The position numbers and the translations under genes were made by a program. Below are positions 5,396 through 48,340 of a DNA stretch of 64,000 bases, piece by piece. The notes under the pieces are model-generated. The model worked only from the letters and a program-made list of their open reading frames with translations, searched no databases and had not been told where the DNA came from. Numbering within the stretch: the stretch's first letter is position 1; each line of letters starts with the position of its first letter. The DNA comes from a virus (Duplodnaviria > Caudoviricetes), in IMG/VR virus record IMGVR_UViG_3300050142_000050, positions 160,001 to 224,000 of that record. One strand, given 5' to 3'.

Positions 5396-5479
5396 TGCCA
5401 AAACTCCAGAATAAGGATAAATACAAGAACCGATCCATGGTAAAGGGGACCATGCTTCCAATCACAGTCCCCTAACCAC

Positions 5480-7483
5480 TTACGCCTCGTAACGCTGCAA
5501 CTCGACGGTGAAGTTACCCTGACGGAAGGGCATCGCACTGCTGATAGCGATATTCGCCGAGATCACATAACCCTTGTTCTGATCACCGGCAGTCTGGAAC
5601 ACGGTGACCTTCACACTGACACCCCCGTTCTTGAGACGGTCGTTGATCTCATTGGTCATGTCTTCGCCGATCGACGAGAACATTTCCTCAGCAGGACGAC
5701 GGACACCAGCCTGACGTGCCCAGACCACACGCGAGAGCATGTAGGCATAGGAGACGTAGTCGCTCATTTCCTCGTTGGAGAGGAGCGAGGTGTCGTCTTC
5801 ATAGACGGTGCGCAGATCGGGATAGAAGATGACATTCATCGACGCATGCATGCAAGTGTTCAGGCCGATGGCCCACGCAGTCTTGCGATCGTCGTCATCG
5901 TCCGAGGACCAGTTGATCGAGCTCAGCACAAAGTCGTTGACGTTGCTGTTGGGCTGACCAGCAGTCGAACCTGCTACGCGCTGACCGCCATTGAGATCAC
6001 GCAGCTTCTTGGCACGGTCCACCAGTAGAGGCACAATACCGGTGTAGTCGGTACCATTGACCAGATTACCGCACTGACCATAGATAGCCACACGGTGACA
6101 ACCCACGCCGTTCAGGATCGAGTCTGGATAGTTGGCGGCCTGAGCAGCCAGTACCGAAGCGATCGCGAGATCTTCTGCCTTGGTGTTGGGATCACGCAAC
6201 ACGTCCTGCGTAGCGATACGTAGATTCAGGTTGTCACGCATCGTGAGCAGTTGGAAGAGCGCCAGCTTCGTCGGCTGGGTGAACCCAGGATCGAAGAAGT
6301 GAGTGATCGGCCACTTGGTCAGATACTTGAACTCCCCGTGGTCAGTACCTGCGATCCAGTCACGGATCAGGGTCTGGAGACCCAGGAAGCTCACATCACC
6401 ATCATCCCCACCTTCGAAGTAGTTCAGGACAGCACTGTTCACCACACCGCTGGAAGCACCATCGATCTGCAACACATCGATGTACTCGTTGTTACCATCC
6501 ACACCCTTGATCAGGTCCAGACGATAAGGATCGACACCCGTCAGGTCGCTCGACTTGCCGATGATCAGGTTACCGATCGTTTCGATGTGCTGACCGTAGG
6601 ACAGGATCTTGAAATCGAGCAGCGCATCACCAGTGTCGGCATCGGCATACTTGCGAGCGATCACACTGCGGAACGCATAATTCGTTGCAGTGGGATTGTA
6701 GATAGCCACGTTCTTGAATGAGAAGTCATTGTAGGAGGTACCATAACGGTCCACCACAGCCGACGCGGTCGTTGATGTCGAGGTGGGCAGCTCCATCGGA
6801 GCGAATCGATAGATAGCCGAGCCCACCGCATCAGCGATAGCGGCATTGCTCGAAGTAGCCGAGAAGAGCTTGAAGCCCAGACGATTGCCGTACTTACCGG
6901 GTGAGAGAGCCTCACCGGCCAGAATCGGGTAGGTAGTCTTCTGTGCGGCACCAGTACCGGTGACCACGGGTTCCAGAGTGCGGTAGGACTCGTTGTCAGC
7001 CAGCTTGCGATACACCCACTTGATCTTCACACCGGGAGCAGTCTCGTTGGTGACATTGTCTGCCAACTTCTTGGGAGTCGGGTTGCCGCTACCATCCAAG
7101 ATCAGAGCACCGCTGGCGGTCTTCTGGTACTGGATCACATTGACCAGCGACACTTCCAGGAAGAGACCGAATGTGGATGTCTTGGCATCCGCAGCTGCCA
7201 GACGCATGGCGCATACGCCACCACCATTCGAATGGATACCCAGCATGCGCGTAGCCGGTGTGTAGTAGGGAGATGTCTCGAGGAAAGACTCGGCACCAAA
7301 TGCCTTGGTCATTTCCTTACCACCACCGAAATAGATACGACCCGGTACACCGCGCTCTGCGAGAATGAACTGGATCGGTGTACTCAGACCGCTCTCGAGT
7401 TGAGAGGTGAGGACCGACGTGGATGCCTTGGAACTGTCCAAGATATCCAGTTTGACTGTAGGGTAACCCTGATTGTTAGCCAT
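5480..7483 (-). CDS. tail sheath protein (phiKZ gp29-like)
   Basis: 667 aa from ATG 7483 (AAGGA RBS); FILAERG..FGAESF...YYTPAT N-terminus, HFFDPGF, YPDSILNGVGCHRVAIYGQCG, sheath-like C-terminus. Confidence 0.8.
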   Translation of the reverse strand: MANNQGYPTVKLDILDSSKASTSVLTSQLESGLSTPIQFILAERGVPGRIYFGGGKEMTKAFGAESFLETSPYYTPATRMLGIHSNGGGVCAMRLAAADAKTSTFGLFLEVSLVNVIQYQKTASGALILDGSGNPTPKKLADNVTNETAPGVKIKWVYRKLADNESYRTLEPVVTGTGAAQKTTYPILAGEALSPGKYGNRLGFKLFSATSSNAAIADAVGSAIYRFAPMELPTSTSTTASAVVDRYGTSYNDFSFKNVAIYNPTATNYAFRSVIARKYADADTGDALLDFKILSYGQHIETIGNLIIGKSSDLTGVDPYRLDLIKGVDGNNEYIDVLQIDGASSGVVNSAVLNYFEGGDDGDVSFLGLQTLIRDWIAGTDHGEFKYLTKWPITHFFDPGFTQPTKLALFQLLTMRDNLNLRIATQDVLRDPNTKAEDLAIASVLAAQAANYPDSILNGVGCHRVAIYGQCGNLVNGTDYTGIVPLLVDRAKKLRDLNGGQRVAGSTAGQPNSNVNDFVLSSINWSSDDDDDRKTAWAIGLNTCMHASMNVIFYPDLRTVYEDDTSLLSNEEMSDYVSYAYMLSRVVWARQAGVRRPAEEMFSSIGEDMTNEINDRLKNGGVSVKVTVFQTAGDQNKGYVISANIAISSAMPFRQGNFTVELQRYEA

Positions 7484-18029: not shown

Positions 18030-18057
18030 AGGAGTAGGGGGTCACTCCCCTACTCCT
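18030..18057 (+). terminator. hairpin, TCAC loop
   Basis: AGGAGTAGGGGG-TCAC-TCCCCTACTCCT then CTTT. Confidence 0.7.
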
Positions 18058-18120: not shown

Positions 18121-18885
18121 ATGTCGAGTCCATATACCAACCCAGTGACGACCATCACTGACATCTCCAAGTATTTCGAAAAGGACGAGACTAAGTTCTC
18201 CATGAAGTTCATTGGTGAAACCCTAGAACTGAGAATACCTCGTCGTTTTGGTACGCATGGATTCCTGGAGATCGGTGACAGTGTCACCACCATCGGATCG
18301 ATGGACATGATCTTCGATGGTAAATATCGCGCAGGTCTTAACATCCTAGCAGCGATCACTATCGAACCTACCGATATCGGTTCCATGACCTACAATGGTG
18401 TCGAGTATGTAGTGCTCCACCTCAAGACTGGCGACACTTTCATGACGTCCTATCGCGTCATCCAGAATCAGCGTGTGGTCTACGCTCTGTGGAAGGAATA
18501 CATCGAGTCGGGTAATGTACCCTACCACTATACCTACAACGACCTCCTCAAGCTATTCGATACAGCTAAGGAGATCACCGGTGCAGGTATCGGTGTGTCT
18601 CGCTCTGTATGGAGCGGTATCATCGCTCACTTGGCTCGAGACTCCGACAGCGTGACTGTACCCTATCGGCGTACGCCCATGGATAAACCCATGATGTTTG
18701 TCCCTCTCAACTCTATCTCCCTGGCTCCCAGTGGTACTGTGGCACGTATCAACGGTTCCTATTTCAGGGATCGTGGTACCGTGTCTGCACTCCTCCATGA
18801 AGTGACAGAAAAGCAGCCATTCGAAGATGTGCTGCGTGGTCTCCCACCGAGAGATGTGGGGAAAGGTCATGAGCCGATACTTTGA
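18121..18885 (+). CDS. virion RNA polymerase beta-prime C-terminal subunit (phiKZ gp176/SPN3US gp244-like)
   Basis: VWSGIIAHLARD...VPLNSISLAPSGTVARINGSYF...EDVLR aligns by eye with beta-prime region H (HIEVIVRQMLR...GITKASLATESFISAASFQ); adjacent to prohead protease as in phiKZ-like phages. Confidence 0.65.
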   Translation: MSSPYTNPVTTITDISKYFEKDETKFSMKFIGETLELRIPRRFGTHGFLEIGDSVTTIGSMDMIFDGKYRAGLNILAAITIEPTDIGSMTYNGVEYVVLHLKTGDTFMTSYRVIQNQRVVYALWKEYIESGNVPYHYTYNDLLKLFDTAKEITGAGIGVSRSVWSGIIAHLARDSDSVTVPYRRTPMDKPMMFVPLNSISLAPSGTVARINGSYFRDRGTVSALLHEVTEKQPFEDVLRGLPPRDVGKGHEPIL

Positions 18886-19147
18886 CGTCATCAAAGCCTG
18901 GTACTCCTTGCGGAGGTTATCACGAGAAGATTCCTTATGGACCCCTGTCTACCAGGAATATACTTCACTCGTGATCAGTACGATCTGCCTCTTAGGAGAC
19001 AGGCTTATGATGGATATATTCGCCATCGCCTACTATTTGTCTGTCATGGTTATCTTAGCTAACCTAGTACAGATAGACCACAGTTCATTAGTGAGTCTTT
19101 GTAGGCGGTATCTTTTATTTTTGGTGGACAAGGATAGGTCGCCATGA
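18869..19147 (+). CDS. possible small hydrophobic protein (uncertain)
   Basis: 92 aa filling the gap, ATGA overlap with protease start; no recognisable motif. Confidence 0.25.
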   Translation: MSRYFDVIKAWYSLRRLSREDSLWTPVYQEYTSLVISTICLLGDRLMMDIFAIAYYLSVMVILANLVQIDHSSLVSLCRRYLLFLVDKDRSP

Positions 19148-19992
19148 CTTCTACCATGCCTAAAAATATCCAGTTTCGTATGGAAACCCTGTTCACGGGT
19201 AAGAATGGTCGTGTCGGTGTGATCAAGCCCGATTCGAATGGTATCTACAAGGGCTTGCCCATGATGGTACTCAACCAGACGACCCAACAGAAGACCTATT
19301 ACGAACCTGAGTCGATGATGAAAGCCATCACCAACCCTGAGGGTACCTTCTATAAGAACTATGTGGCCCACAAGGCCTATGGTGAGTTAGGTCACCCTCG
19401 CTTCACGGGTATGGATAAGGATGCCGCACTGGCTCGTCTCATGGACGTCCAGGAAGCACGTGCATCCCACCTGTTCACAGGGATCTATACCGATGCTCCT
19501 GCATCGGATGGTACTATCGTCCTACGAGCAGATATCAAGCCAGCTGGTGAGAAAGGTGCTACTCTCAAGGAAAGCCTGGATGATCCCATCCAGAATACAG
19601 CTTTCTCACTGCGAGCATTCGTGTCGGGTCAGATGCTCCCCGATGGTCGTACCTTCCGTACCGTCCATGCTTTCACCACATTCGATGCAGTCCTGGCTTC
19701 TGGCTATGCGACGACGGATAAGTTCCATGCCATCGGCCTGGAATCGATGGGTAATGGGGTTGACGATTTCCATGAATATGAGATCGACATCACCTCGGAT
19801 GGTAAGCTCCTGATCGATGCCGTGGCATTGGAGTCTTTGGCTGATAGTGAATTGGCTGAGATTTTGGGCACCAATACTGTCGGGCGAGTGGTGCGCACGC
19901 GCACTCTGATCGATCCCGACTCGGGCCTACTGGCTCGTCATGGTGATCGGTATGCTCGTTCGCTCTTCCACGATCACTTCAAAGGACTCTGA
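19144..19992 (+). CDS. prohead (head maturation) serine protease, phiKZ gp175/T4 gp21-like
   Basis: YGELGHP (His), NTAFSLRA (Ser), TFDAV (Asp); C-terminal GLE|S and ALE|S self-cleavage-type sites. Confidence 0.85.
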   Translation: MTSTMPKNIQFRMETLFTGKNGRVGVIKPDSNGIYKGLPMMVLNQTTQQKTYYEPESMMKAITNPEGTFYKNYVAHKAYGELGHPRFTGMDKDAALARLMDVQEARASHLFTGIYTDAPASDGTIVLRADIKPAGEKGATLKESLDDPIQNTAFSLRAFVSGQMLPDGRTFRTVHAFTTFDAVLASGYATTDKFHAIGLESMGNGVDDFHEYEIDITSDGKLLIDAVALESLADSELAEILGTNTVGRVVRTRTLIDPDSGLLARHGDRYARSLFHDHFKGL

Positions 19993-19994
19993 TC

Positions 19995-21128
19995 ATGGTA
20001 GCTATACCTCTACCCATCAGCGAATCGGAATTGGAGATCGAGACTCCTTATCTGATCGCTAACTCCTTTACCATCGTCTTGGAATATCTGAAGGGTCAAA
20101 CCCGAACGAAGACCAAGATGGGTGGACAGAAGGTATCCAACACCTTCGAATATCCTTACGGTCGTATCGAAGGTACCACCGATTCTCATGGTGAAGAACT
20201 CGACATCTTCCTGGTGTCGATCGATGCAGATCACCTCGATGTTTATGTCATCGATCAGATCTGTCCCGATACACGCCTCTTCGATGAGCACAAGATCATC
20301 CTGGGCGCTACGACGCAGGAAGAAGCAGTCGCCGCTTATCGCGCGTGCTACGGCGACGCCGTGCGTGTGAACCGCATCGGTGCGGTGACCACCTTCAGTC
20401 AGGAAGACTTCCGTATTTGGATCGATGCCAAATCGGTGACCTACTTCCCTGCCTCTCACTATACAGGTCCTAAGGGACCTTCTGTGGAAGTCACCAAGTT
20501 CTTCACCGATCGATCCAAGCTTCCTCAGATCACACCTTCGGGTGCATTTGAGATCAAGCTACCTGACATCTCCAAAGGTCCTCTGATCAAGACCTCTGCT
20601 ATCGAGGGTGGTATCAAATATACCGCTTACCTCTATTCGGAGTTCTCGATCCTGGAATGGACCAATGCGATCGATGATCTGGTCCTGGCCATGCATGATG
20701 CCACTGAGTTTGATGAGTTCCATATCCGACTCATCTCACGTGGTGGTGCTGTCCATCTCATGGGTCGTCTGATCTCGGCTATGGATACCACCAAGGCCCA
20801 CGTCGTCACCTATGCAGATGGGTGTGTGGCCTCAGCAGCCACAGGTACCTGGGTAGCAGGTCATGAACGTCACATCTGTGAGGGTGCATACTTCATGCAA
20901 CATATGTCCTCACAGGGTGCTTCTGGTAAGACCACGAGCATCTTGCGTCGTGCAGGCTTCACCAAGAAGTATGTCGACCGTATCCTCGACCGACTCGTGG
21001 AGCATGGACCCTTCAATGAGAAGGAAGTCGACGACATGCGCAATAGCGAGTGCGATAAGTTCCTGAGCGGTCGTACCGCCATCGAACGTATCGGTGCGGT
21101 TTCCTATACTCGCGAACGGAGGGTGTAA
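19995..21128 (+). CDS. InPase-like domain fused to ClpP-like serine protease
   Basis: N-term YGRIEGT..HGEELDIFL..VYVIDQICPDTRLFDEHKIILG..EEAVAAYRACY (InPase); C-term RLISRGG..ADGCVASAAT..AG..FMQH..DKFLS (ClpP Ser-His-Asp). Confidence 0.8.
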   Translation: MVAIPLPISESELEIETPYLIANSFTIVLEYLKGQTRTKTKMGGQKVSNTFEYPYGRIEGTTDSHGEELDIFLVSIDADHLDVYVIDQICPDTRLFDEHKIILGATTQEEAVAAYRACYGDAVRVNRIGAVTTFSQEDFRIWIDAKSVTYFPASHYTGPKGPSVEVTKFFTDRSKLPQITPSGAFEIKLPDISKGPLIKTSAIEGGIKYTAYLYSEFSILEWTNAIDDLVLAMHDATEFDEFHIRLISRGGAVHLMGRLISAMDTTKAHVVTYADGCVASAATGTWVAGHERHICEGAYFMQHMSSQGASGKTTSILRRAGFTKKYVDRILDRLVEHGPFNEKEVDDMRNSECDKFLSGRTAIERIGAVSYTRERRV

Positions 21129-21131
21129 CCC

Positions 21132-21800
21132 ATGGAGTTCCAAGAATATCGCAGGGATCTCCTCCCGGCCGAATCCTTCGCTATGGAGTCATTCAGTTTC
21201 ACTCCGAAGAATACCGATGGTCTGAAACAGACGCGCTCCATGGGCGATCTCCTACAGATGGTGGCTGAAGAAGAGAACCGGGTACCCAGTTACTTCAAGC
21301 CAGCCACTATCCTGGTCAAGGATGGCGTACATCACGTATCCATCTTCACTGGGTTCTCGATCGATGGGACATCTCTGTCTCAGCGTCTGTGTATCTTCTT
21401 CCAGGAGCTCACTGAGAAGGACGAAGTCCATCTCCGTCTCACCAGTCACCTGACCAATGTAGCCCCTGTGGCATACCTCTCGCTCATCGCAGCGATCGGT
21501 CGTTGTAAGGCGTCTGTCAAGATCTACCTCGACACTATCGTGGATGATGAACTCGCATACTTCTACCTGGCATGCCCTGAACTGGTCATCGGTAGCATGG
21601 GTGCGCTCATGATCCCCTCCTACTGTCAGCAGATACCCGAAGACATGAGTTCATCATGGCGTGAAGTATCTGACTTCTTCAAGTGGCTGGTCGAATTGGC
21701 GCAAGATCGTGGGCTCATCACCTCCGAACAAGCACAGACTCTCCACTCTGGTCAAGATGTCGAAGTCGACCTCGAAGCCTATATGGCTAAGACATTTTGA
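21132..21800 (+). CDS. degenerate (probably inactive) ClpP-like paralog
   Basis: VHLRLTS..LIAAIGRCKASVKIYLDTIVDDE..LMIP aligns with the upstream ClpP domain with Ser->Asp and His->Pro; N-terminal AME|S site. Confidence 0.6.
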   Translation: MEFQEYRRDLLPAESFAMESFSFTPKNTDGLKQTRSMGDLLQMVAEEENRVPSYFKPATILVKDGVHHVSIFTGFSIDGTSLSQRLCIFFQELTEKDEVHLRLTSHLTNVAPVAYLSLIAAIGRCKASVKIYLDTIVDDELAYFYLACPELVIGSMGALMIPSYCQQIPEDMSSSWREVSDFFKWLVELAQDRGLITSEQAQTLHSGQDVEVDLEAYMAKTF

Positions 21801-21861: not shown

Positions 21862-24477
21862 ATGGCTATCCTGTTTGAAAAAGATTGGCGTAATGCAGCT
21901 GGTAAGCTACGTGCTATACCCCATTACAACACCAAGAATGTCAGCTTCTTGCGTATGGCCCAACTTCTCAAGAAGATGGGTATCAAGAACTATGCGTTCC
22001 ATCTCTGTCTCTACGACAAGGATCTACTGAACGTCGATCCACATAGTCTGACAGAAGATACACCCGAAAATGAGATCCTGCGTCAGAAGGTCTGCAATGA
22101 AGCAGCGAGGAATCTTTGGTACTTCAAACGCGAAGTCCTCAAGATCTACTCACAGGGTGGCGATCCAGTACCCTACGAGTTGAACCGTGGTTCACTCTCC
22201 ATGACCTGGTGCTTCCTCAACGGCATCGACTACTGGTCCATGCAGCCGCGACAGGCACAGCCACTCGATGCTAAGATCCGTACACCGGACGGTCATATCA
22301 CCATGGGTGATGTGGCATACGGTACTCAGATCTTGGCTCCCGATGGTACGACAGTGCGAGTCGCTGGTGTCTACCCCCACGGCGCCAAACCGGTATACAA
22401 AGTAACCCTGTCGGACGGACGTTCCACTGAGTGTTGTAATGACCACCTATGGCGGGTGTACTGCTCATCGTGGAAAGAACCTTGGCGAGTATACTCACTC
22501 GAACAGATTCGCGCATCTCAGGATGAGATCCTTATCCCATTCTGGAATGGTACTGACTTCTCTAATCACTTGACAATAGATTCCATCGAATATGTCGGCG
22601 ATAAGGAAGTCCAATGCATCCATGTTGATCATCCCGATCATCTCTACATCACCGATGATGATATCGTCACTCACAATACAGGCAAGACCGTCGGAGCCTT
22701 GGCGATCACCACTTGGGTGATGTACATCGGTGCTAAGTCGTATACATTTGGTATGATGACTAAGGATGACACTCTGCGTACGGAAAACATTTCTCGTATC
22801 AAACGCATGCGAGAAACGCTTCCATCGTGGATGCTGGCACCCGATCGTTATGCCGATAAGAACAACTCCACCACTCTCTACTATGCTGCTCTGAAGAACA
22901 AGTATGAGACGATGGTGGGCCAGGCCGACGAAGCCAGCGCTGACAAGCAAGCACGTGGTTCGTCTCCTTCCGGTGTACATTTCGACGAAATTGCATTTAT
23001 CTCGCACATCAGAAAGTCCTACTCGGTGATTCTGTCATCGACCGACACTGCACGAGCAAATGCTAAAGCGAATGGTCAGCCTCACTCGAACATTATCACT
23101 ACCACTGCTGGCGATCCATCCAAGAGAGATGCTAAAGCAGCAGCTGAAATCCTCGATGGTGCAATGAACTTCACTGAGACATTGTACGATATCGAGGATA
23201 GTGAAAAGCTCCACATGGTGGTGAAGGCCAACTCTCCTAAGAAGATGATCAATGGTACCTTCTCCCACCTTCAGTTGGGGAGGACCAATGAGTGGCTCCG
23301 AGACATCATCACTCGCAACAACTTGTCAGCAGATGAAGTCTGTCGCGACTATCTCAATCGCTGGGTATCCGTCCAGGACAATCCCATCATCCCCAAAGAG
23401 ATCCTCAGCCGAATCACATCATCTCAGATCGACCCAGTGTGGACTGAGATCATCAGTGATAGATTCCTCATCAGGTGGTACGTACCGCAGAGTGTGGTGG
23501 AATCTCGTGATTTCAAGAACACACCTATCATCGTGGGATGTGACTCGTCAGAACTCATCAACAGGGACGCTACCACTCTCGTGGGGATCAATCCCAAGAC
23601 ACTGGAGGTGGTCTTCACCTATCGAGCAGTCGAGGGTAATATCAACACAGTAGCGACTTCGATCGCTAACTTCTTGATCCGCTATCCCAAGATGTTGTTC
23701 ATCCCAGAAAACAAAAGCTCTGGAACATCGATCATCGATATCGTGGGTGCTATGTTGACCCATGCAGGTCAGAATCCATTCAAGCGCATCTTCAACTGGG
23801 TCGTAGACCGCCGTAATGAGGCTGAGTTCGGAAGGATCAATATCAATGATCCATCGCTGTTGGAAACATCTGTCAAGCGATACTTCGGCATCAAGACGGA
23901 CAAGTCCAAGCGCGATGAGCTCTATAGCTCAGTCCTCATCAAAGCCACCTCTCGTGCAGGGCACCTCACTAAGGACGCAAGACTCGTCTCCGAACTCAGC
24001 TCCCTTGTGGAACGCAATGGACGAGTCGATCACGCAGCTGATGGTAAGGACGATACTGTCATCGCCTATTTGATGGCGATGTGGATCATCTTCTTCGGTA
24101 AGAACCTGGACGTATACGGGATCGAACCTGGTACGATCATGTCCTTTGCTTCTTATGGTAATTCTAACTCTGAAGAAGAGCAGAAGCGCCGTAAGCAAGA
24201 AGCCATCATCAAACATGCGACTGATCAAATCGAGAAGCTCTCTAATGCTCTCAAGAATCAATTCGATCTATCTGTGATCGAGATGATCAAGGGAGAGATC
24301 CGTAAGTATGAAGCCATGCTTCCTGAGTCTCGTTTTATCGAACCTGCTACCACTGATGAGATCATGCGCGATCCCTTCAAATTTGCCGATAGGAAGGCCG
24401 TGGAGGACAATCGTGGTATGTTCGGTACGATGGGGCAGAAGAGAGCAGAAAGCATCCTGACGGACTTACTAGGGTAA
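21862..24477 (+). CDS. terL: terminase large subunit (intein-containing)
   Basis: Walker A PRQ|intein|TGKT, Walker B VHFDEIAF, nuclease VGCDSSE and KDDTVIAYL; 730 aa after intein removal. Confidence 0.9.
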   Translation: MAILFEKDWRNAAGKLRAIPHYNTKNVSFLRMAQLLKKMGIKNYAFHLCLYDKDLLNVDPHSLTEDTPENEILRQKVCNEAARNLWYFKREVLKIYSQGGDPVPYELNRGSLSMTWCFLNGIDYWSMQPRQAQPLDAKIRTPDGHITMGDVAYGTQILAPDGTTVRVAGVYPHGAKPVYKVTLSDGRSTECCNDHLWRVYCSSWKEPWRVYSLEQIRASQDEILIPFWNGTDFSNHLTIDSIEYVGDKEVQCIHVDHPDHLYITDDDIVTHNTGKTVGALAITTWVMYIGAKSYTFGMMTKDDTLRTENISRIKRMRETLPSWMLAPDRYADKNNSTTLYYAALKNKYETMVGQADEASADKQARGSSPSGVHFDEIAFISHIRKSYSVILSSTDTARANAKANGQPHSNIITTTAGDPSKRDAKAAAEILDGAMNFTETLYDIEDSEKLHMVVKANSPKKMINGTFSHLQLGRTNEWLRDIITRNNLSADEVCRDYLNRWVSVQDNPIIPKEILSRITSSQIDPVWTEIISDRFLIRWYVPQSVVESRDFKNTPIIVGCDSSELINRDATTLVGINPKTLEVVFTYRAVEGNINTVATSIANFLIRYPKMLFIPENKSSGTSIIDIVGAMLTHAGQNPFKRIFNWVVDRRNEAEFGRININDPSLLETSVKRYFGIKTDKSKRDELYSSVLIKATSRAGHLTKDARLVSELSSLVERNGRVDHAADGKDDTVIAYLMAMWIIFFGKNLDVYGIEPGTIMSFASYGNSNSEEEQKRRKQEAIIKHATDQIEKLSNALKNQFDLSVIEMIKGEIRKYEAMLPESRFIEPATTDEIMRDPFKFADRKAVEDNRGMFGTMGQKRAESILTDLLG
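22255..22677 (+). mobile_element. class 3 mini-intein (141 aa, no homing endonuclease)
   Basis: Starts AQPLDAKI (Ala1), block B CNDHLW, block F VQCIHVD, ends IVTHN, +1 Thr; W-C-T class 3 signature. Confidence 0.9.
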
Positions 24478-25821: not shown

Positions 25822-25866
25822 TAAATCACCAGAACTCATGGTGTGGACCTAACAAGGAGAAGCATC

Positions 25867-26409
25867 ATGGATACCACAATGCAAGTTATGATCGATCGGG
25901 TGATAAGTAAAGGGAGCGGCATTCTCGACGATAACGCGAGACTATCTGAGACGTTGTTACAAGTCGCAGCTGCAATTGAGCTGAATACCGCAAGTGGGTC
26001 GCCGTACAACTCGGAACCGAAAATCTACAGCGATGAAGTAAGTGAGCTTCTTAACGAAAAAGCCAATCTTCTGACAGACCTTATCTCCACCAACTTAAGG
26101 CTGATAGTCGCATCAGCATCGCTCAGTGGAGCTGATCCGAACTTCTTTGACCGACAAACGACTGGGTCCGATACTCAGCCTCCGGAGACAGTCGATGAAC
26201 CTACTCCCGAGAAGACGTACGAGGGTTATCAACTCCGAGTCGTCGAGGAGCGTGATGCTCTGAAAACGAAAATGGATGCTCTCTCAAAATTCCTCAACTC
26301 CAACGCAGTAAACGACCTCACACCGGACGCCAGTGATCTTCTGAATCGGCAGTGGTATGCGATGAAAGGATATCTGGACATCCTCGATAAGCGCATCGCG
26401 CTGTTCTGA
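25867..26409 (+). CDS. protein with C-terminal crAss001_48-like helical domain
   Basis: YQLRVVEERDALKTKMDALSKFL..LLNRQWYAMKGYLDILDKRIALF; AAGGAG RBS before ATG 25867. Confidence 0.65.
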   Translation: MDTTMQVMIDRVISKGSGILDDNARLSETLLQVAAAIELNTASGSPYNSEPKIYSDEVSELLNEKANLLTDLISTNLRLIVASASLSGADPNFFDRQTTGSDTQPPETVDEPTPEKTYEGYQLRVVEERDALKTKMDALSKFLNSNAVNDLTPDASDLLNRQWYAMKGYLDILDKRIALF

Positions 26410-26636: not shown

Positions 26637-28505
26637 ATGAACGATATGGCAGCTCGATTCCCAGGTCGACGCAAAGCAGTTACCCCTCCCAACGCCTTCA
26701 AGCGTGATCGTGAGATCCCTGATGTGTGGGTGGACGATTCACGTGACGAACTGTTCATGGACTTTGCCCGCGCTACATTGGACGACATCTATCTGTCCCC
26801 CACTGAGAAATACCAGGATCGTATCGCTAATGCTCATCGCGCGTACGCTGACGATCAAGCACATGCCCAGCGCATGTATGAGTACTCGTCCAAAGGTTGG
26901 TGCATTCCTGCTACGCCTATCCTGGCTAATGGTGGTACCACTCGAGGTCTTCCGATCTCGTGCTACCTGACTCATGTTCAGGACGATATGAAGGACATCA
27001 TCGGCCACTGGGCCGAGATCGCTCATCTGGGTCATAAGGGTGGTGGTATCGGATCTTACTGGGGCGATGTCCGATCGGCCGATGAGAAGATCGGTCTCAT
27101 TGGGAAGTCGTCTGGCGTGATGCCGTTCCTAAAGGTAGATGATGCCCAGACTGCCAGTATCAGCCAGGGTAACGCACGACGTGCATCTGCGGTCGTGTTC
27201 CTCGACATCGATCACCCAGAGATCGAACTCTTCGTCGAGATGCGTCAGAAGACTGGTGGCGATCCCAAGTACAAGTGCCTCAACCTACATCATGGGGTGG
27301 TCATCACCGATGCCTTCATGTGGGCAGTAGTCATTAATGGTCAATGGGACCTGAAAGCCCGCACGACAGGATTGGTCGTGAAGACCCTGAGCGCTCGAGC
27401 GCTATTCGAGAAGATCATCGAATATCGCATGGCCAATGGTGAGCCGTTCATCCTGTTCCTTGAGAATGCGAACAAGCATGTCCCCATTCACCACAAGAAA
27501 GCAGGACTCCTCGTACGAACATCCAACCTTTGTATGGAGATCCTTCTTCCCACCGGTAGAGATCAGTACGGTAATCATCGTACTGCGGTCTGTGCCCTTT
27601 ATCAGCTGAATGCTGAAAAGTTTGACGAGTGGAAAGATGATCCGAACATCATCGAAGATGTCGCTCGTTTTATGGATAACGTCTTGACCGACTATATCGA
27701 CCACGCCGGTCCTGACTTCGCACGAGCCACCTATTCGGCACAGCGTGAACGCTCGATTGGTGTGGGCCACTTCGGTATCCATTCCTACCTCCAGATGAAG
27801 AATGTCCCGGTATCTTCGCCGATCGGTATGGCTATGTCGACAAAGATCGCCAAGCATATCAATGACGGCATGAAGGCTGCTTCGTATAAGCTCGCAGTCG
27901 AACGTGGCCCGTGCCCTGATGCGGCCGACTATGGGATCATGGAGCGATTCTCCTGTAAAACCGCCATGGCTCCCACCGCTTCAGTATCTATCGTAGCAGG
28001 TGCTGGATGCTCAGCAGGTGGTGACTTCATCCCGGCGAATATCTACACACATAAGACCAGGGTCGGTTCTTGGTCTGTCAAGAATAAGTGGTTGACGAAG
28101 GTGCTGGACGCCTATGGTAGGAATACCAATGAAGTCTGGGATTCGATCGTGAAGCACACGGGGTCGGTGGCCCATCTTGACTTCTTGTCAGATCACGAGC
28201 GTGATGTGTTCAAGACTGCCTATGAGATCGATCCGAAGTTTGGTATCCTCTACAACGAGGCTCGTATCCCTCACATCGACCAATCACAATCGTACAACAT
28301 GTACATCCCACCGATGATCGATCGTGCCGAACTGATGCGTATCCACATCGACGGTTGGATGCGCGGGATCAAGTCCTATTACTACCTGCGTACTCTGGCT
28401 CCTAGCCGTGGTGATAGCAGTGATGGTGAAAAGATCCAGGTCGTGGGATGGACTCCGGAAGAGCCGGGTAAGGTGACCTACGAAGAATGCACTTGGTGTC
28501 AGTGA
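26637..28505 (+). CDS. nrdA: ribonucleotide reductase class Ia alpha subunit (no ATP cone)
   Basis: PATPILANGG..GLPISCYL, GGGIG, TSNLCMEI, AVCAL, APTAS, IDQSQS, KSYYY, C-terminal CTWCQ. Confidence 0.95.
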   Translation: MNDMAARFPGRRKAVTPPNAFKRDREIPDVWVDDSRDELFMDFARATLDDIYLSPTEKYQDRIANAHRAYADDQAHAQRMYEYSSKGWCIPATPILANGGTTRGLPISCYLTHVQDDMKDIIGHWAEIAHLGHKGGGIGSYWGDVRSADEKIGLIGKSSGVMPFLKVDDAQTASISQGNARRASAVVFLDIDHPEIELFVEMRQKTGGDPKYKCLNLHHGVVITDAFMWAVVINGQWDLKARTTGLVVKTLSARALFEKIIEYRMANGEPFILFLENANKHVPIHHKKAGLLVRTSNLCMEILLPTGRDQYGNHRTAVCALYQLNAEKFDEWKDDPNIIEDVARFMDNVLTDYIDHAGPDFARATYSAQRERSIGVGHFGIHSYLQMKNVPVSSPIGMAMSTKIAKHINDGMKAASYKLAVERGPCPDAADYGIMERFSCKTAMAPTASVSIVAGAGCSAGGDFIPANIYTHKTRVGSWSVKNKWLTKVLDAYGRNTNEVWDSIVKHTGSVAHLDFLSDHERDVFKTAYEIDPKFGILYNEARIPHIDQSQSYNMYIPPMIDRAELMRIHIDGWMRGIKSYYYLRTLAPSRGDSSDGEKIQVVGWTPEEPGKVTYEECTWCQ

Positions 28506-28566
28506 CCCAAGACTGACTTCTTTCATCGAACCGTCCGTAGTCAATTTTACAAAGAAAGCTTCAGAG

Positions 28567-29766
28567 ATGACTTCTTTTACTCTCTTCGACAATGAACCCA
28601 CCATCGAAGAAATCACTCTTCAGCGTCGTGATAAGGTGATGAATGGAATCCACAATGGATCTATTCCTCATGAGAAGATCGCCTATATTCCGATGGAATA
28701 TCTCGATGTCACCAGCATCCCTGGCGTGGCCAGTGAGAATATCCTGACTGAGTCCAGAGTCTACAAGCCGTTTCGATATGAGTTCGGCTATCGGATGTAT
28801 GAGATGCAGAACAATCTGCATTGGATGCAAGACAAGATCTCCATGGACGAAGATATCGTGCAATTCGGTCGGCTTCCTGATCAACAGCGAGAAGTCCTTG
28901 AGGACATCTTCCCGATGTTCGTGAAGAATGACATGGTGGCTGAAGACTTCTGGGCTGGTAAATACCAGCGCATCTTTAAGCCCCATGAGATCCAGATGGG
29001 CATCGGTGCTGCTGTCAACATGGAGGCTATCCATAAGAGTGCCTATGCCTACCTATTGGATTCTCTGGCATTCCCTGTGGGTCGCTACAGCGACTTCTTG
29101 ACCCATCAGGAAGCCACTGATAAGCTCGACTACACGACGGGCTTCCATATGACCTCGCTGTACGAGACCCTGGCATCGATCTTCATGTTCGGTGCGATGA
29201 CTGAGGGTGTACAGCTCTATGGGAACTTCGCAGTCATGATGAGCTTCCCTCACCGCAATCTGATGAAGGGTATGGGTCAGGTGGTGACCTGGTCGGTGCG
29301 TGATGAGAGTCTGCACTGTGGGTTCGCAGCACAACTGTGGAAGCACACTCTTCTGGAGTTCGGTCATCTCATTGACATCAAGGCTCTCTTCACATGGTGT
29401 CAGAAGATCGCCCATCGGGTATATCAGAATGAGGTCGGTTTTGCAACCCTGATCTTCCGCCGTGGTCCTCTTCCGGATATGACGTTCGAACAACATTGCC
29501 AATACATGCGTCACCTGATTGACTCGCGTCTGAAGTCTTATGGGATCGCACCCATCTTCGGTGAACCTGAGACGCCGTATGACTTCTTGACGTCTCTTCT
29601 GTCAGGCGTCGAATATGCCAACTTCTTCGAGCAGCGTGCTACTGAATACGGCATGGCGAACCTGACTGGTTCGTTCCAGCCTGCATACGGCGCAGCACTG
29701 AGCGAGATCGACTTCATCAAGGAAAAACGCAAGTCTCTTGGTTTTGCTGTACCCGAAGGGGTTTGA
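28567..29766 (+). CDS. nrdB: ribonucleotide reductase class Ia beta subunit
   Basis: YKPFRY, HW, iron ligands D..MEAIH..AY (radical Tyr), TEG, RDESLH, NFFEQRATEY. Confidence 0.95.
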   Translation: MTSFTLFDNEPTIEEITLQRRDKVMNGIHNGSIPHEKIAYIPMEYLDVTSIPGVASENILTESRVYKPFRYEFGYRMYEMQNNLHWMQDKISMDEDIVQFGRLPDQQREVLEDIFPMFVKNDMVAEDFWAGKYQRIFKPHEIQMGIGAAVNMEAIHKSAYAYLLDSLAFPVGRYSDFLTHQEATDKLDYTTGFHMTSLYETLASIFMFGAMTEGVQLYGNFAVMMSFPHRNLMKGMGQVVTWSVRDESLHCGFAAQLWKHTLLEFGHLIDIKALFTWCQKIAHRVYQNEVGFATLIFRRGPLPDMTFEQHCQYMRHLIDSRLKSYGIAPIFGEPETPYDFLTSLLSGVEYANFFEQRATEYGMANLTGSFQPAYGAALSEIDFIKEKRKSLGFAVPEGV

Positions 29767-35108: not shown

Positions 35109-35489
35109 ATGCGCATCCGCAGTATCAACCGCGCTTGGAACTGGGTAGTTCTGGCACTCTTCATTGTGATTGGTGTTTTCACCATCGCAGAAGTACGCCA
35201 TGTGCGCGAATACACTTTCACAGTGTCGGCTACCGACAACAAATGCGATGTGGATGCAGGTGAACTCACCTGCTACTACGTCGTCTTCGGGACTGAAGGT
35301 GAAGTCTTCAAGAATGTCGACAGCGTTTGGTTCTGGAAGTGGGACAGTGCGTCTGTACAAGCCAAGATGCAGGTAGGTAAAACCTACACTGTTCGAGCTA
35401 GTGGATATCGCATCCCGTTCTTCTCCATGAAACCGAACATTATCGAGGTCGAACACCAGCTGCAACTGGGAGGTACTACCAGTGAGTAA
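35109..35489 (+). CDS. membrane-anchored phage protein
   Basis: N-terminal TM; EVFKNVDSVWFWKWDS..GKTYTVRASGYRIPFFSMKPNII pattern of a widespread phage family. Confidence 0.7.
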   Translation: MRIRSINRAWNWVVLALFIVIGVFTIAEVRHVREYTFTVSATDNKCDVDAGELTCYYVVFGTEGEVFKNVDSVWFWKWDSASVQAKMQVGKTYTVRASGYRIPFFSMKPNIIEVEHQLQLGGTTSE

Positions 35490-36750
35490 CAAGAAGAACG
35501 CCGTCGTATCGGCTGCCGTAGAAGGTAGCAAGCGACACCTCAAGCGATACGTATTCGGTACACTCGGACTGGGTGCAGCTGCTATCATCAGTGCGCAGCT
35601 TAAGCGTCGGGTTTCATCGACGGTGACATTTAACTCGGGATCTCATGAATTCTCTGACATCCTGAGGTTCGTGACGGACAAGGTCGTCGATCCGAGGTTC
35701 TCCACGGCCTTTCATTATAGTGAATTACGAGTCGGTCGCAATGGTAAACAATACCGTACTCGGGGTATCGACATCGGCGATGGTATCCACTATGGGATGT
35801 ACCGTGGATCACCCTGTGCGATCAAGATCTCCTCGGTGACGACCAATGTCGAGATTATCGTCACCATGGTCATGACTAGGATGGGATCGGATCAGTCATG
35901 GTGCGGTAAAATCTTCGACGATGCCATGGATTACCGTAGAGAACGAGAGGGTGAAACGGGATCCTTATTTGTCAGGATTAACAGCGGGTCTACATCCCGT
36001 TATGGCTCTTCGTCGTCGTGGTCTGAGAGGAAGAAGATGCCTCGGAGATACTCGGACTCCATCTTCTTCGACACTGACTATGTGAAGCAGATCGTCGATC
36101 ACATTGAGGAGTTCAGGAAGAAGCGTGAGTGGAATGTCTCAAGAGGACTTCCTCATCACACTGGTATCGTACTCTACGGTGCACCGGGGTGTGGTAAATC
36201 GAGCCTATTGGCCGTCGTGGCCGCCATGGTGAATCGCAACCTTGCTATCATGGACCTCTCGACAGTGGTCGGTCCACGAGATTTGGCGAGTCAGATCTCG
36301 GACATCACCTCGTGGGACGAAGACATTCTTGTAGTCGAGGATATCGATGCACGAGGTAAGTCTCTGAAACGATCTGCTCATCACCATGTGGGTGATGATC
36401 CTGACAACAGTGCACTATTGGGCACTCTCCTCAATATCCTCGATGGGGTAGGATCGCCTACTGATATGGTGACCATCATCACCACAAATGATCTCAGTGC
36501 CCTGGATCCGGCGCTCATCCGCCCCGGGCGATTCGATCTCGTTATCGAAGTGAAACCGATCGGTCTTGAAAGTGTCATCAGGATGGCGCAATATTTCGAG
36601 ATCGATACTGAGGGCTTCTACATCGAAGACTTCTCACCGATGCCGGGAGCTACCGTCCGTGGTATCCTCTTGGACACTGGGCTGGATGGTATCCGCGATT
36701 ACCAGACCAAGCAAAAAGAACAATCCGATGAACCGCATGACAGAGCGTAG
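35482..36750 (+). CDS. BCS1-like AAA+ ATPase with N-terminal membrane anchor
   Basis: GIVLYGAPGCGKS (Walker A), LVVEDID (Walker B), TTN, LDPALIRPGRFD (SRH). Confidence 0.85.
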   Translation: MSNKKNAVVSAAVEGSKRHLKRYVFGTLGLGAAAIISAQLKRRVSSTVTFNSGSHEFSDILRFVTDKVVDPRFSTAFHYSELRVGRNGKQYRTRGIDIGDGIHYGMYRGSPCAIKISSVTTNVEIIVTMVMTRMGSDQSWCGKIFDDAMDYRREREGETGSLFVRINSGSTSRYGSSSSWSERKKMPRRYSDSIFFDTDYVKQIVDHIEEFRKKREWNVSRGLPHHTGIVLYGAPGCGKSSLLAVVAAMVNRNLAIMDLSTVVGPRDLASQISDITSWDEDILVVEDIDARGKSLKRSAHHHVGDDPDNSALLGTLLNILDGVGSPTDMVTIITTNDLSALDPALIRPGRFDLVIEVKPIGLESVIRMAQYFEIDTEGFYIEDFSPMPGATVRGILLDTGLDGIRDYQTKQKEQSDEPHDRA

Positions 36751-46243: not shown

Positions 46244-48340
46244 ATGATTTCTTTCCCACCTCATGGTCTATCCGGAGATGATCTCACTCAGTGGTACTGC
46301 GATAATGCAGACGCCATCCTGAAGGATCACTCTACCGATGATCCCACTATCGAGAGTGTCACTCTTCTGACGGGTCTCGTTGCGGCGGCTAACACCCGCT
46401 ATCGCAATCACCAGGAGTCTCCACTCGCCGATTCGGTTTATGATGCTCTAGTGAAGAAACTGGGCGTTAGTGATGATCTCCAACTCACCAAGGTAGGAGA
46501 TGCTTCCATACGACACCTGGTGCAGATGCCCAGCCTCAGGAAGCTCTATAGCCTCGATAGGGGCTTATATCACAGAAGCCGGTCGTGGTACATAGATCCC
46601 AAGATCGATGGAGTGGCTATCTCGATACACTATCTAGAGGGCAAGCTCTTCATGGCGGCGCTGAGCGGGAATGGGGTCGTAGGAGATCTGATCACGGCAC
46701 GTATCCTCAACATCCCCTTTGTACCCAATGAGATCTCCACCAGTCATCCGATGAGTCATATCGAAATTCGTGGTGAAATCTACGTCACGCATGGTTCACT
46801 AACCGCAATCAACAAACTCATTGCGAATATCGATGGGGTCGATCCTTACAAGAATAACAGATCGGCAGCTGCCGGTATGATCAACACTATTGACAATGAT
46901 CATTTCAAACCGTACCTGTCCTTTGCGGCATGGGACATGATCATCCATCAGGGCTTTGATCCTTATCACACACGTGGTTCGAAAATGTCGGCTCTGGCTG
47001 AGATGGGATTCATCATCCCTCCATTGGCAGTGACCGCTACGATATCGGACGAAGTCGACGAGATCGTGAGCGAGCTGGTCACTACGCGTTCTAAGATTTG
47101 GGATTTGGGTATACCCATCGACGGTTTCGTGTTCAAACCCAATAGTTCCCGTGAATATGAATACTCGCCCATCACGAGCGAGACCGATGTACCCATGAAG
47201 TATCACCCAGTGGCCTTTGCTTATAAGCTCCCTAACGAATGGGAAGAGAGCAAGGTCTATGGAGTCGACTACCAATTGGGCAGGACAGGGGTAGTAACTC
47301 CTGTGTATCGCATCGCACCAGTGATTATCGATGGTACCACCATCTCGAGCGCCACTGGTCACAATGTCTATCACATGGAAGGATTGGGGATAGGCCCCAA
47401 CAGTGAGGTCACTGTCGCTAGGGCTGGTGGGGTAATCCCTGCTATCCGAACTGTGAGGACTTCACCAGATGGCCCGTTTCCTATTCCGACCGATTGTCCC
47501 AGCTGTGGAAAACCACTGGTACGACTGGAGCGGAAGCTCTTGTGCCGGGAGTTCGATTGCAAAGATAAGTTCTATTCCTATCTGACCTATATCGTCAGTA
47601 AGGAATGCCTCAACATACCCGGTTATGGGGAAGTATGGGCCAGGAGCGTAGTCGATGATTCGATCACCCTCAATCAACCTCTGACCGGCAGTCGTGTCGC
47701 AGATTTGATCTTGGGTAATAACTTCCGATCGAGTACGCCAGTTCTCTCACTGGACAAGATGCGAGGTCCGTCGTTCACATGTCGGGAGATCGTCCTAGCA
47801 CTCAACATACCCAATGTGGGTGTGGTGGCTGCCGACAAGATCACCAGTCTCGTCAATGGTGACACATATTCCATCGTGTCGTACTTGACGGAACAACCCG
47901 AGACACTCGAGCGTGCAGGTATTCCAATCCATGCTCGAGAGAGTATCGCTGAGTATTTCCAAGAGGGAAGCAAGACTCGGGTATGGGCCGAAGCCTTCAT
48001 CCTCAGGTTGAGTGAACTCGGTGCTATCGAGATCATGAAACCTATCCAAAGGACGATGGGTCCTGGTGTAGTCGTCACTGGTAAATTTAGTGATGGTACA
48101 AGGGATACCATCAAAGAACTCATACAGAGCATGGGATATTCCGTCACCAAGAACGTGAACCCTGCTACTAAATTCTTACTCGCTGGGGAAGACCCATCCC
48201 AAAAGAAGATCAAAGTCGCAAAAGATCTCGGGGTGACCATCATTAACGATGGTGGCGGGAGCTACAAGGATGCCTTGGCTAATTGGGTCAAGGACGTAGG
48301 TAACTGGAGGACATCGAGCCTCCTGAGCCTTATCGAGTAG
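46244..48340 (+). CDS. ligA: NAD-dependent DNA ligase
   Basis: Ia-like YRNHQESPLADSVYDAL, PKIDG (adenylated Lys), EIRGE, PIDGFVFK, GRTGVVTP, CPSC..C..C zinc finger, C-terminal BRCT (VVTG...KKIKVAKDLGVTII). Confidence 0.92.
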   Translation: MISFPPHGLSGDDLTQWYCDNADAILKDHSTDDPTIESVTLLTGLVAAANTRYRNHQESPLADSVYDALVKKLGVSDDLQLTKVGDASIRHLVQMPSLRKLYSLDRGLYHRSRSWYIDPKIDGVAISIHYLEGKLFMAALSGNGVVGDLITARILNIPFVPNEISTSHPMSHIEIRGEIYVTHGSLTAINKLIANIDGVDPYKNNRSAAAGMINTIDNDHFKPYLSFAAWDMIIHQGFDPYHTRGSKMSALAEMGFIIPPLAVTATISDEVDEIVSELVTTRSKIWDLGIPIDGFVFKPNSSREYEYSPITSETDVPMKYHPVAFAYKLPNEWEESKVYGVDYQLGRTGVVTPVYRIAPVIIDGTTISSATGHNVYHMEGLGIGPNSEVTVARAGGVIPAIRTVRTSPDGPFPIPTDCPSCGKPLVRLERKLLCREFDCKDKFYSYLTYIVSKECLNIPGYGEVWARSVVDDSITLNQPLTGSRVADLILGNNFRSSTPVLSLDKMRGPSFTCREIVLALNIPNVGVVAADKITSLVNGDTYSIVSYLTEQPETLERAGIPIHARESIAEYFQEGSKTRVWAEAFILRLSELGAIEIMKPIQRTMGPGVVVTGKFSDGTRDTIKELIQSMGYSVTKNVNPATKFLLAGEDPSQKKIKVAKDLGVTIINDGGGSYKDALANWVKDVGNWRTSSLLSLIE

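Follow-up and report, generated by a model that had tools for sequence, protein, structure and literature searches.

An active ClpP-type protease and a ClpP-like protein that, by its sequence, lacks both the nucleophile and the histidine base are encoded one after the other, behind the gene for a prohead protease of the Peptidase_S80 type, in a group of uncultivated jumbo phages. Together, S80 protease, ClpP and pseudo-ClpP make up a conserved unit. We describe it from a 64,000-nucleotide stretch of viral DNA (Duplodnaviria; Caudoviricetes), hereafter the window, which comprises bases 160001-224000 of the 249,638-bp IMG/VR virus record IMGVR_UViG_3300050142_000050 (estimated completeness 89%, CheckV). 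Here the active ClpP is the C-terminal domain of open reading frame (ORF) 1, whose N-terminal domain is of the InPase family, and the inactive paralogue is ORF2. This arrangement of S80 protease, ClpP and pseudo-ClpP was not found in the literature searched. As to what the two proteins do, we hold the scales to be level on a ClpP/ClpR-like mixed complex, with ORF1 as the active and ORF2 as the inactive subunit, that would be targeted into the prohead and trimmed there by the S80 protease.

An active ClpP paired with a catalytically dead paralogue

A preliminary description of the window, made from its letters alone, had placed both ORFs between the prohead protease and the terminase, as we also find, with both on the plus strand and the large terminase subunit as the neighbour, and had read ORF1 as an InPase-type domain joined to a ClpP domain with a complete triad. 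Pfam matches to both domains bear out this reading. Residues 231-364 of ORF1 match CLP_protease (PF00574, MEROPS S14) with an E value of 2.9e-9 and 37.5 bits against a cut-off of 20.2, and the triad formed by Ser280 (VAS), His303 (MQH) and Asp354 (DKF) is invariant in an alignment of 37 homologues. These residues align with the active-site stretches of solved ClpPs, which the family profile matches at 2e-10; the match begins at about ClpP residue 40, so that sequence comparison picks out no counterpart of the usual N-terminal gating region. In the AlphaFold model of ORF1 (predicted local distance difference test, pLDDT, 86.8), two well-folded domains are joined by a linker, with confidence lowest at about residues 170-200, and the C-terminal domain matches solved ClpP chains in Foldseek with an E value of 1e-10 and a template modelling score of 0.62-0.72 depending on the target. 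The closest PHROG family of this domain is phrog_1827 (E 1.5e-25), the prohead-protease family phrog_1684 being more distant (1.1e-11). A tblastn search of GenBank phages with ORF1 returned 211 records, none of them at 80% coverage or more and all of them InPase-only or ClpP-only.

ORF2 has no match in Pfam and matches phrog_1827 weakly (4.7e-5). Its relationship to the ClpP domain of ORF1 is seen directly, by BLASTP (27% identity, E 2e-5) and by hhalign (95.9%, E 5e-9), and in every ORF1-like protein the ClpP domain is matched by the hidden Markov model (HMM) of the ORF2 family (1e-8 to 1e-16), with HMM matches that are reciprocal. In both the BLASTP and the hhalign alignments Ser280 of ORF1 falls opposite Asp139 of ORF2, in agreement with the serine-to-aspartate change proposed in the preliminary description. 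The histidine-to-proline change proposed with it is one residue off, since His303 aligns with Ser163 and Pro162 stands one residue earlier; there is no histidine either way. Asp354 aligns with Asp209, an aspartate retained in this copy of ORF2 and not family-wide. The serine and histidine columns are non-catalytic in nearly all of the 61 ORF2-family members, and we therefore read ORF2, on its alignments, as a ClpP-fold paralogue devoid of nucleophile and histidine base.

In the model of ORF2 (pLDDT 87.3), the N-terminus is disordered and residues 51-221 form a confident core with the fold shared by ClpP and the crotonases. Its best structural match in the VIA ranking is human ClpP (Z 10.6, rmsd 3.9, 155 of 180 residues aligned), followed by chains of the Chlamydomonas ClpP/R core (7eko/7ekq; Z 10.3 and 10.2), with crotonases tying with ClpP within 1 Z unit. 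ORF2 does not appear to be a ClpR orthologue: 58 of the 61 family members have no CLP_protease match (3 do, and 21 match phrog_1827), and the nearest relatives are phage proteins. No match to ORF2 at E <=0.01 was obtained by tblastn against GenBank phages, and the family profile, run against PDB sequences, returned only a chance match to a farnesyltransferase (E 0.085). ORF2 evolves fast; a word-based homologue search returned ORF2 itself only, and identity within the family falls to 15-20%. An exhaustive profile search resolved the ORF2 family into 102 clusters at 50% identity.

Full-length InPase-ClpP proteins fall into about 40 clusters by word-based search, all of them metagenomic, and several of the contigs measure 250-308 kb. 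Environmental and assembly data are the source of the related contigs, one of which, of 297 kb, belongs to GCA_030012865.1. Scans of IMG/VR and of metagenomes with the ORF1 alignment returned mostly InPase-only proteins and added one and three fused loci, respectively. HMMs for four domains (S80, InPase, ClpP and ORF2-like) were then scanned over all fetched loci. In 13 of 13 distinct loci, all from uncultivated jumbo phages, the order is S80 protease, ClpP with or without InPase, and ORF2-like protein, on one strand and with tiny gaps, at ORF1 identities as low as 32%. The gene pair and its order are thus conserved across related jumbo phages. The ORF2 HMM was built partly from sequences of these same loci, L086, L088 and L096-L098 having, as far as tracked, contributed none. 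In one of these, the 6.7-kb metagenome contig L088, the ORF2 homologue is split into a 97-residue N-terminal piece after ORF1 (5479-5772, plus strand) and a 133-residue piece on the opposite strand at the contig end (6311-6712, minus strand; E 2e-39), probably through an assembly inversion rather than biology.

Two of the 13 loci have no InPase. In L093, a 332-residue ClpP with its triad kept (hhalign 99.8% to the ClpP domain of ORF1) precedes a 249-residue ORF2 homologue. In L091, an active ClpP and an ORF2-like half are joined in one chain, the 505-residue protein P0083 (5001-6518). Its N-terminal half corresponds to the ClpP domain of ORF1 (hhalign 99.3%, E 3.6e-20), with serine and histidine kept and asparagine in place of the aspartate, and its C-terminal half corresponds to the ORF2 family (hhalign 96.9%, E 1.6e-10). 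The terminase gene is not adjacent in L091, where the S80 linkage is still present. Because these two loci keep the module without InPase, the conserved unit is the S80 protease, the ClpP and the pseudo-ClpP, with InPase added at the N-terminus within a single large clade. P0106 and P0119 share the layout of P0083, with CLP_protease followed by an ORF2-like domain, which brings the fused forms to three clusters, each with its domains in gene order.

Among cultured phages with an S80 protease, pVa-21, BONAISHI and JM-2012 have no ClpP-annotated gene after S80. The possibility of a hidden ORF2 homologue at that place was pursued in pVa-21 and BONAISHI and rejected, the downstream gene of comparable size giving an hhalign probability below 1%. 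The pair is accordingly absent after S80 from the three cultured phages examined, and it was not found as an already characterised system of phiKZ-like phages.

Contact between the two proteins was modelled with residues 195-377 of ORF1 and 50-222 of ORF2, alongside three controls. The two-chain model reaches an ipSAE of 0.64 (runs 0.64, 0.58 and 0.67) against 0.00 for the best control, a score that may owe something to known complexes, as many solved ClpP rings resemble the pair. In calibration, 58 of 80 solved complexes and 2 of 110 mismatched pairs came up to this ipSAE mark. The runs have at least 91% of contacts in common, with a partner pLDDT of at least 85. Helices 219-235, 253-265 and 315-329 of ORF1 are predicted to face ORF2 strands at about residues 51-72, 102-106, 132-138 and 154-160, which suggests the side-by-side packing found in ClpP/ClpR rings; the predicted interface sets ORF1 253-265 and 315-329 against ORF2 134-138 and 154-160. 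Three lines agree: the two genes stay adjacent however deep the divergence, some relatives carry them fused in a single chain, and the complex model points the same way. Binding of ORF1 to ORF2 is thereby supported, in part by prediction, and the ClpP/ClpR-like hetero-complex envisaged in the preliminary description is well supported by computation.

The same evidence bears on a different account of ORF2, in which it is a decayed, non-binding duplicate reused as a small head or scaffold protein, and the ORF1 protease mainly cuts itself to free the InPase domain. The rapid divergence of ORF2 would fit such a history, and in polyvalent proteins a peptidase that frees the protein's own domains is common (Iyer et al. 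2017). We nevertheless regard decay as very improbable, given that active and dead halves share a single chain in three clusters, that the complex model passes its controls, that the ORF2 core folds confidently and stays conserved over 100-plus clusters at 50% identity, and that the pair persists in L091 and L093, where there is no InPase to release.

Candidate route into the prohead

The S80 protease of phage SPN3US, gp245, cuts after A-x-E, prefers serine at P1' and removes N-terminal propeptides, among them the 24- and 20-residue propeptides of gp225 and gp45 (PMC10052503). ORF2 carries A17-M-E19|S20 within its disordered N-terminal segment (pLDDT about 50), and the preliminary description had taken this site as a mark of maturation in the head. 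The family as a whole lends weight to that proposal. Among the ORF2-family members with an N-terminal extension of at least 25 residues, 35 of 41 contain [SAG]xE[SAGT], where shuffled sequences would give 11.9; under the narrower pattern [AG][LIMTV]E[SAG] the count is 20 (1.9 expected) and, in the clade nearest to ORF2, 10 of 10 (0.24 expected), always at residues 17-26. Most near-clade homologues also have a tryptophan at about residue 6-12 with acidic residues (W-x-D/E) upstream of G-L-E|S, the window ORF2 having Phe/Tyr in place of the tryptophan; W-x-D/E may be part of a targeting signal.

The window offers its own indication of the motif preferred by the protease of this phage. Upstream of the S80 gene stand four tandem paralogues whose common N-terminal module, some 73-78 residues in, ends in A-L-E|S, A-V-E|S, A-L-E|G and A-T-E|G. 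Judging from these ends, the four are likely to be S80-processed internal head proteins. Incorporation of the pair into the head by way of the ORF2 propeptide is a good inference.

Our proposal joins these observations as follows. ORF1 and ORF2 would be the active and inactive subunits of a ClpP-like complex specific to phages and produced alongside the S80 protease. The short disordered N-terminal peptide of ORF2 would act as a capsid-targeting propeptide, which the S80 protease would remove at A-M-E|S inside the prohead. ORF2 would carry its active partner, and hence the InPase domain, into the head, a role we assign to ORF2 because the cut motif is enriched in its family and ORF1 has no conserved site. 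The ClpP chamber may then degrade the propeptide and scaffold fragments freed by the S80 protease, letting these exit the capsid before DNA packaging; this last step is the least certain, and is favoured because it is the protease gene, not InPase, to which the pair is linked. A separate idea, that the S80 protease cuts InPase away from ClpP, was rejected, as linker motifs occur in 18 of the 37 homologues with 23 expected, which is no enrichment.

Several points weigh against this proposal. The N-terminus is shorter than 25 residues in 20 of the 61 ORF2-family members, so that targeting cannot act in this manner in all of them, and across the 37 homologues of ORF1 no S80 site beyond the folded cores is conserved. 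The placing in the head draws on motif, synteny and analogy, and the clean-up of fragments by the pair is the weakest step in the argument. For ORF2, Foldseek puts crotonases above ClpP, and the fold by itself cannot separate the two; the assignment to ClpP comes from the sequence relationships given above. Finally, the ClpPs of phrog_1827 adjoin PhoH, outside the head modules, in CR8 and ICP1.

In another reading the pair is, as with other phage ClpPs, a cytoplasmic, host-directed protease served by an unfoldase of the host (ClpX or ClpA) or of the phage, its position among head genes being incidental. The best PHROG match of the ORF1 ClpP domain, phrog_1827, is annotated 'ATP-dependent protease', ClpP of jumbo phages has been read as likely host-directed by Iyer and colleagues (PMC7824862), and the genome encodes a Bcs1-like classical AAA+ ATPase at 35482-36750 (phrog_7485; best PDB matches to mitochondrial Bcs1, E 5e-25). 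Against a cytoplasmic site of action, the S80 linkage is invariant in the 13 loci, including L091, where the terminase gene is not a neighbour, and an S80-type cut motif is enriched in ORF2-family N-termini. Further, the genome contains no ClpX/ClpA-type AAA_2 domain, and, as noted, the N-terminal gating region usual for ClpP cannot be recognised in the ORF1 sequence. The Bcs1-like ATPase, for its part, is present in RSL2 and LucasX, where neither the ClpP of ORF1 nor ORF2 was detected. We consider a cytoplasmic protease distinctly improbable.

The Bcs1-like ATPase was weighed in its own right as a dedicated unfoldase, and was set aside because it lies 14 kb away and is present in cultured phages with no detected ClpP or ORF2. 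Solved Bcs1 proteins are heptamers, as is ClpP. Homologues of this ATPase were seen in cultured phages where the ClpP pair went undetected, namely RSL2, LucasX and Erythrobacter phages; the distance between the ATPase gene of LucasX and its S80 gene is about 700 bp.

The InPase domain and the genomic setting

The InPase domain (Pfam PF18823) is matched at ORF1 residues 23-143 with an E value of 3.7e-24 and 85.6 bits against a cut-off of 26.8. Its acidic motif is altered, as the preliminary description had noted: ORF1 has H65-G-E-E-L-D70, whereas 73 other phage InPase domains from viral contigs have D-G-D-H-x-D, with aspartate in 71, 68 and 70 of the 73 at the three positions. In ORF1 two of the family aspartates are thus replaced, by His65 and Glu67, and the near-invariant K17 and H19 are replaced too; retained are E30, R37, Y55, D70, D87, Q88, D97-E-H-K100 and Y115. 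Among the 37 homologues of the fused family, His65 is found in most, Glu67 in nearly all and Asp70 in every member, with aspartate at position 65 in six distant members (P0035-P0040). The set of four conserved acidic metal-binding residues of InPase (Iyer et al. 2017) is accordingly not complete in ORF1. This pattern of replacement and retention reads as a site that is changed yet under selection, not decayed. The N-terminal domain of ORF1 is an InPase by descent whose pyrophosphatase activity is doubtful, the altered but conserved metal site arguing against plain pyrophosphate hydrolysis.

InPase occurs in phage polyvalent proteins and in portal fusions, for which packaging and injection have been proposed (Iyer et al. 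2017); ClpP goes unmentioned in that study. The ORF1 domain matches domains within DarB-like and other giant polyvalent PHROG families. Polyvalent proteins are packaged multidomain proteins that bring several conflict-related domains together, mostly along with a processing peptidase; ORF1 has two domains only, InPase being among the domains listed by Iyer et al. 2017. The InPase profile also matches the C-terminus (residues 639-761, E 9e-21) of gp19, the portal of phage Pa193 (PDB 9b41), of which residues 94-528 only were built in the structure study. In the proposed scheme the InPase of ORF1 would be cargo inside the head, its metal or ligand site altered, like the portal-InPase and prohead-protease-InPase fusions found elsewhere.

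The fusion of InPase to ClpP as such is not new. The cultured Cellulophaga phage phiST encodes gp026 (AGO47165.1), a 690-residue 'putative tail protein' with InPase at residues 21-155 and ClpP at 209-347, which sits in a structural module and belongs to phrog_20705, a family annotated as virion structural. The fusion is not described in the literature covered by our full-text searches. The preliminary description knew of no account of the arrangement; the fusion in it has a precedent, unremarked, in phiST.

These properties of InPase bear on a reading in which the complex is packaged in the head and does its work after ejection, on host proteins, pyrophosphate or nucleotide-like molecules. The polyvalent-protein proposal of Iyer et al. 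2017 and the matches to DarB-like and giant polyvalent families favour it; the cut-motif enrichment and synteny of ORF2, as evidence of targeting to the head, fit it equally well; and phiKZ-like heads carry many ejected proteins (PMC10052503). On the other side, InPase is absent from L091 and L093, so that the conserved core is the protease pair, two acidic residues of the InPase domain are replaced, a ClpP-type barrel would get through the tail only if unfolded, and nothing indicates a host target. Action after ejection is, in our estimate, unlikely, though less so than a cytoplasmic protease. Its fullest form, an injected proteolytic machine in which active and dead ClpP with a re-tooled InPase are loaded through the ORF2 propeptide and ejected, there to degrade host proteins or to hydrolyse or bind a nucleotide-derived signal, we rate as slightly less likely still. 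Nucleotide sensing and action on host defence proteins had both been raised in the preliminary description, and nothing points to either.

ORF1 and ORF2 are surrounded by head and tail genes, with PHROG matches to tail sheath and virion structural protein and a weak PhiKZ_VTX match, in a region for which megablast found no DNA-level matches among GenBank phages. GenBank relatives of the S80 protease are at 27-33% identity only and come from jumbo phages without exception. The S80 stop codon and the ORF1 ATG are separated by 2 nt, and ORF1 and ORF2 by a 3-nt gap, with GGAGG 8 nt ahead of the ORF2 ATG, within the end of ORF1. The transcription unit to which the S80 protease, ORF1 and ORF2 belong probably starts with the gene for the virion structural protein of phrog_2926; on the plus strand up to 22100, no second terminator-like site follows the hairpin that lies upstream of that gene. 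A scan for sigma-70 promoters found none, as expected for such phages. The coordinates of these features are collected in Table 1.

Table 1. Features of the ORF1/ORF2 region, in window coordinates.
Feature	Position	Strand	Remark
Four tandem paralogues, 296, 335, 291 and 272 residues	14296..17980	+	N-terminal module common to all
Terminator-like hairpin, 12-bp stem	18030..18057	+	Closes paralogue block upstream
Virion structural protein, phrog_2926 (E 3.6e-46)	18121..18885	+	
Prohead protease, Peptidase_S80 (E 1.8e-32; phrog_3014)	19144..19992	+	phiKZ gp175 / SPN3US gp245 type
ORF1, 377 residues, InPase-ClpP fusion	19995..21128	+	
InPase domain, ORF1 residues 16-148	20040..20438	+	
Altered acidic motif, H65-G-E67-E-L-D70	20187-20204	+	
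ORF1 linker, residues 149-197	20439..20585	+	No conserved S/A/G-x-E site
ORF1 ClpP domain, residues 198-373	20586..21113	+	
ORF1 triad codon, Ser280	20832-20834	+	
ORF1 triad codon, His303	20901-20903	+	
ORF1 triad codon, Asp354	21054-21056	+	
ORF2, 222 residues, putative ClpP-fold pseudoprotease	21132..21800	+	
Predicted 19-residue N-terminal propeptide of ORF2, A17-M18-E19, cut before S20	21132..21188	+	Disordered in model
ORF2 ClpP-like core, residues 51-221	21282..21794	+	
Large terminase, 871 residues, inserted segment at about residues 130-290	21862..24477	+	Downstream edge of module

Terminase profiles match residues 3-132 of the large terminase and pick up again later, the gap corresponding to the inserted segment (about 22255-22677). 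This segment, whose own profile matches are to families unrelated to terminases (DnaC-like loader, primase, recombinase), ends in T-H-N before TGKT; it looks like a mini-intein in the ATPase motif, the unrelated profile matches being read as an intein signature. The terminases of relatives measure 1071-1074 residues (one, in L093, with a weak LAGLIDADG match) or 719-724 residues. Further downstream are a protein with a crAss001_48-related C-terminal domain (25843-26409), an ORF that resembles the ribonucleotide reductase large subunit by sequence, followed by a confirmed small subunit (26637-29766; PF00268), and an NAD-dependent DNA ligase with BRCT (46244-48340). The genes equivalent to the putative ribonucleotide reductase ORF carry the Pfam domains in L003 and L091. 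All of these are ordinary replication and nucleotide genes adjoining the head module. The Pfam RNA polymerase beta domain (PF00562) was not detected in the genome, which is uninformative given that phiKZ-type RNA polymerases are very divergent.

Known systems and biological meaning

A close parallel to the pair is found in the ClpP/ClpR rings of cyanobacteria and plastids (Chlamydomonas 7eko/7ekq), which likewise combine an active ClpP with a paralogue stripped of catalytic residues. They differ in that ORF2 would be of independent origin, its nearest relatives being the phage's own ClpP domain and phrog_1827, and in that the phage pair lies in a virion morphogenesis operon, with a predicted propeptide on ORF2 and InPase on the active subunit. 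In the ClpP1/ClpP2 systems of Mycobacterium, Listeria and Streptomyces, the genes of the two ClpP paralogues are adjacent and the products must co-assemble; both subunits there retain the nucleophile and form two homo-heptameric rings, whereas ORF2 appears fully dead. Listeria ClpP1 has asparagine at the aspartate position (Ser-His-Asn), as does the fused P0083, and is active only with ClpP2.

Among phage proteins, phiST gp026 resembles ORF1 in its N-terminal InPase followed by ClpP and in its place in a structural module. It differs in an extra C-terminal region of about 340 residues, in a canonical-scoring InPase match (E 5e-55) and in a genome of 78 kb, which is not that of a jumbo phage; neither an S80 protease nor a dead ClpP partner was seen in its 8.4-kb locus. 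A dead ClpP in the C-terminal part of gp026 was considered and rejected, as only the protein's own ClpP domain was matched, weakly (12%). Portal-InPase fusions (gp19 of Pseudomonas phage Pa193; Burkholderia phage BcepF1) place the same InPase family on a head protein, but the carrier is the portal, not a protease, and the Pa193 InPase is not resolved in the map. The stand-alone ClpPs of phrog_1827 in Vibrio phage ICP1 and Cronobacter phage CR8 belong to the profile family nearest to the ClpP domain of ORF1 and to ORF2 alike; they differ in lying beside PhoH, among early or metabolic genes, and the loci inspected have no S80 neighbour, InPase or annotated dead partner. The N-terminal peptide of ORF2, with A-x-E and then serine, resembles both the substrates of the S80 proteases phiKZ gp175 and SPN3US gp245 and the capsid-targeting sequences of T4, although no ClpP-like substrate emerged from the SPN3US proteomics study (PMC10052503).

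Plastids and cyanobacteria have ClpP rings in which active and dead subunits are mixed, and the reason for keeping the dead ones is debated. The module described here would represent an active/dead ClpP pairing that arose independently in a virus, as a compact three-gene unit. Portals and polyvalent proteins being the first two, it would also add a third type of carrier inside the head for the poorly understood InPase. The module further suggests that head assembly in some giant phages involves two proteases of unrelated fold, one site-specific and the other a degradative chamber, which could bear on how propeptide fragments exit from the protein-rich heads of phiKZ-like phages. Lastly, it offers a small, expressible system for studying the contribution of a dead ClpP subunit, which in this case may be a targeting peptide.

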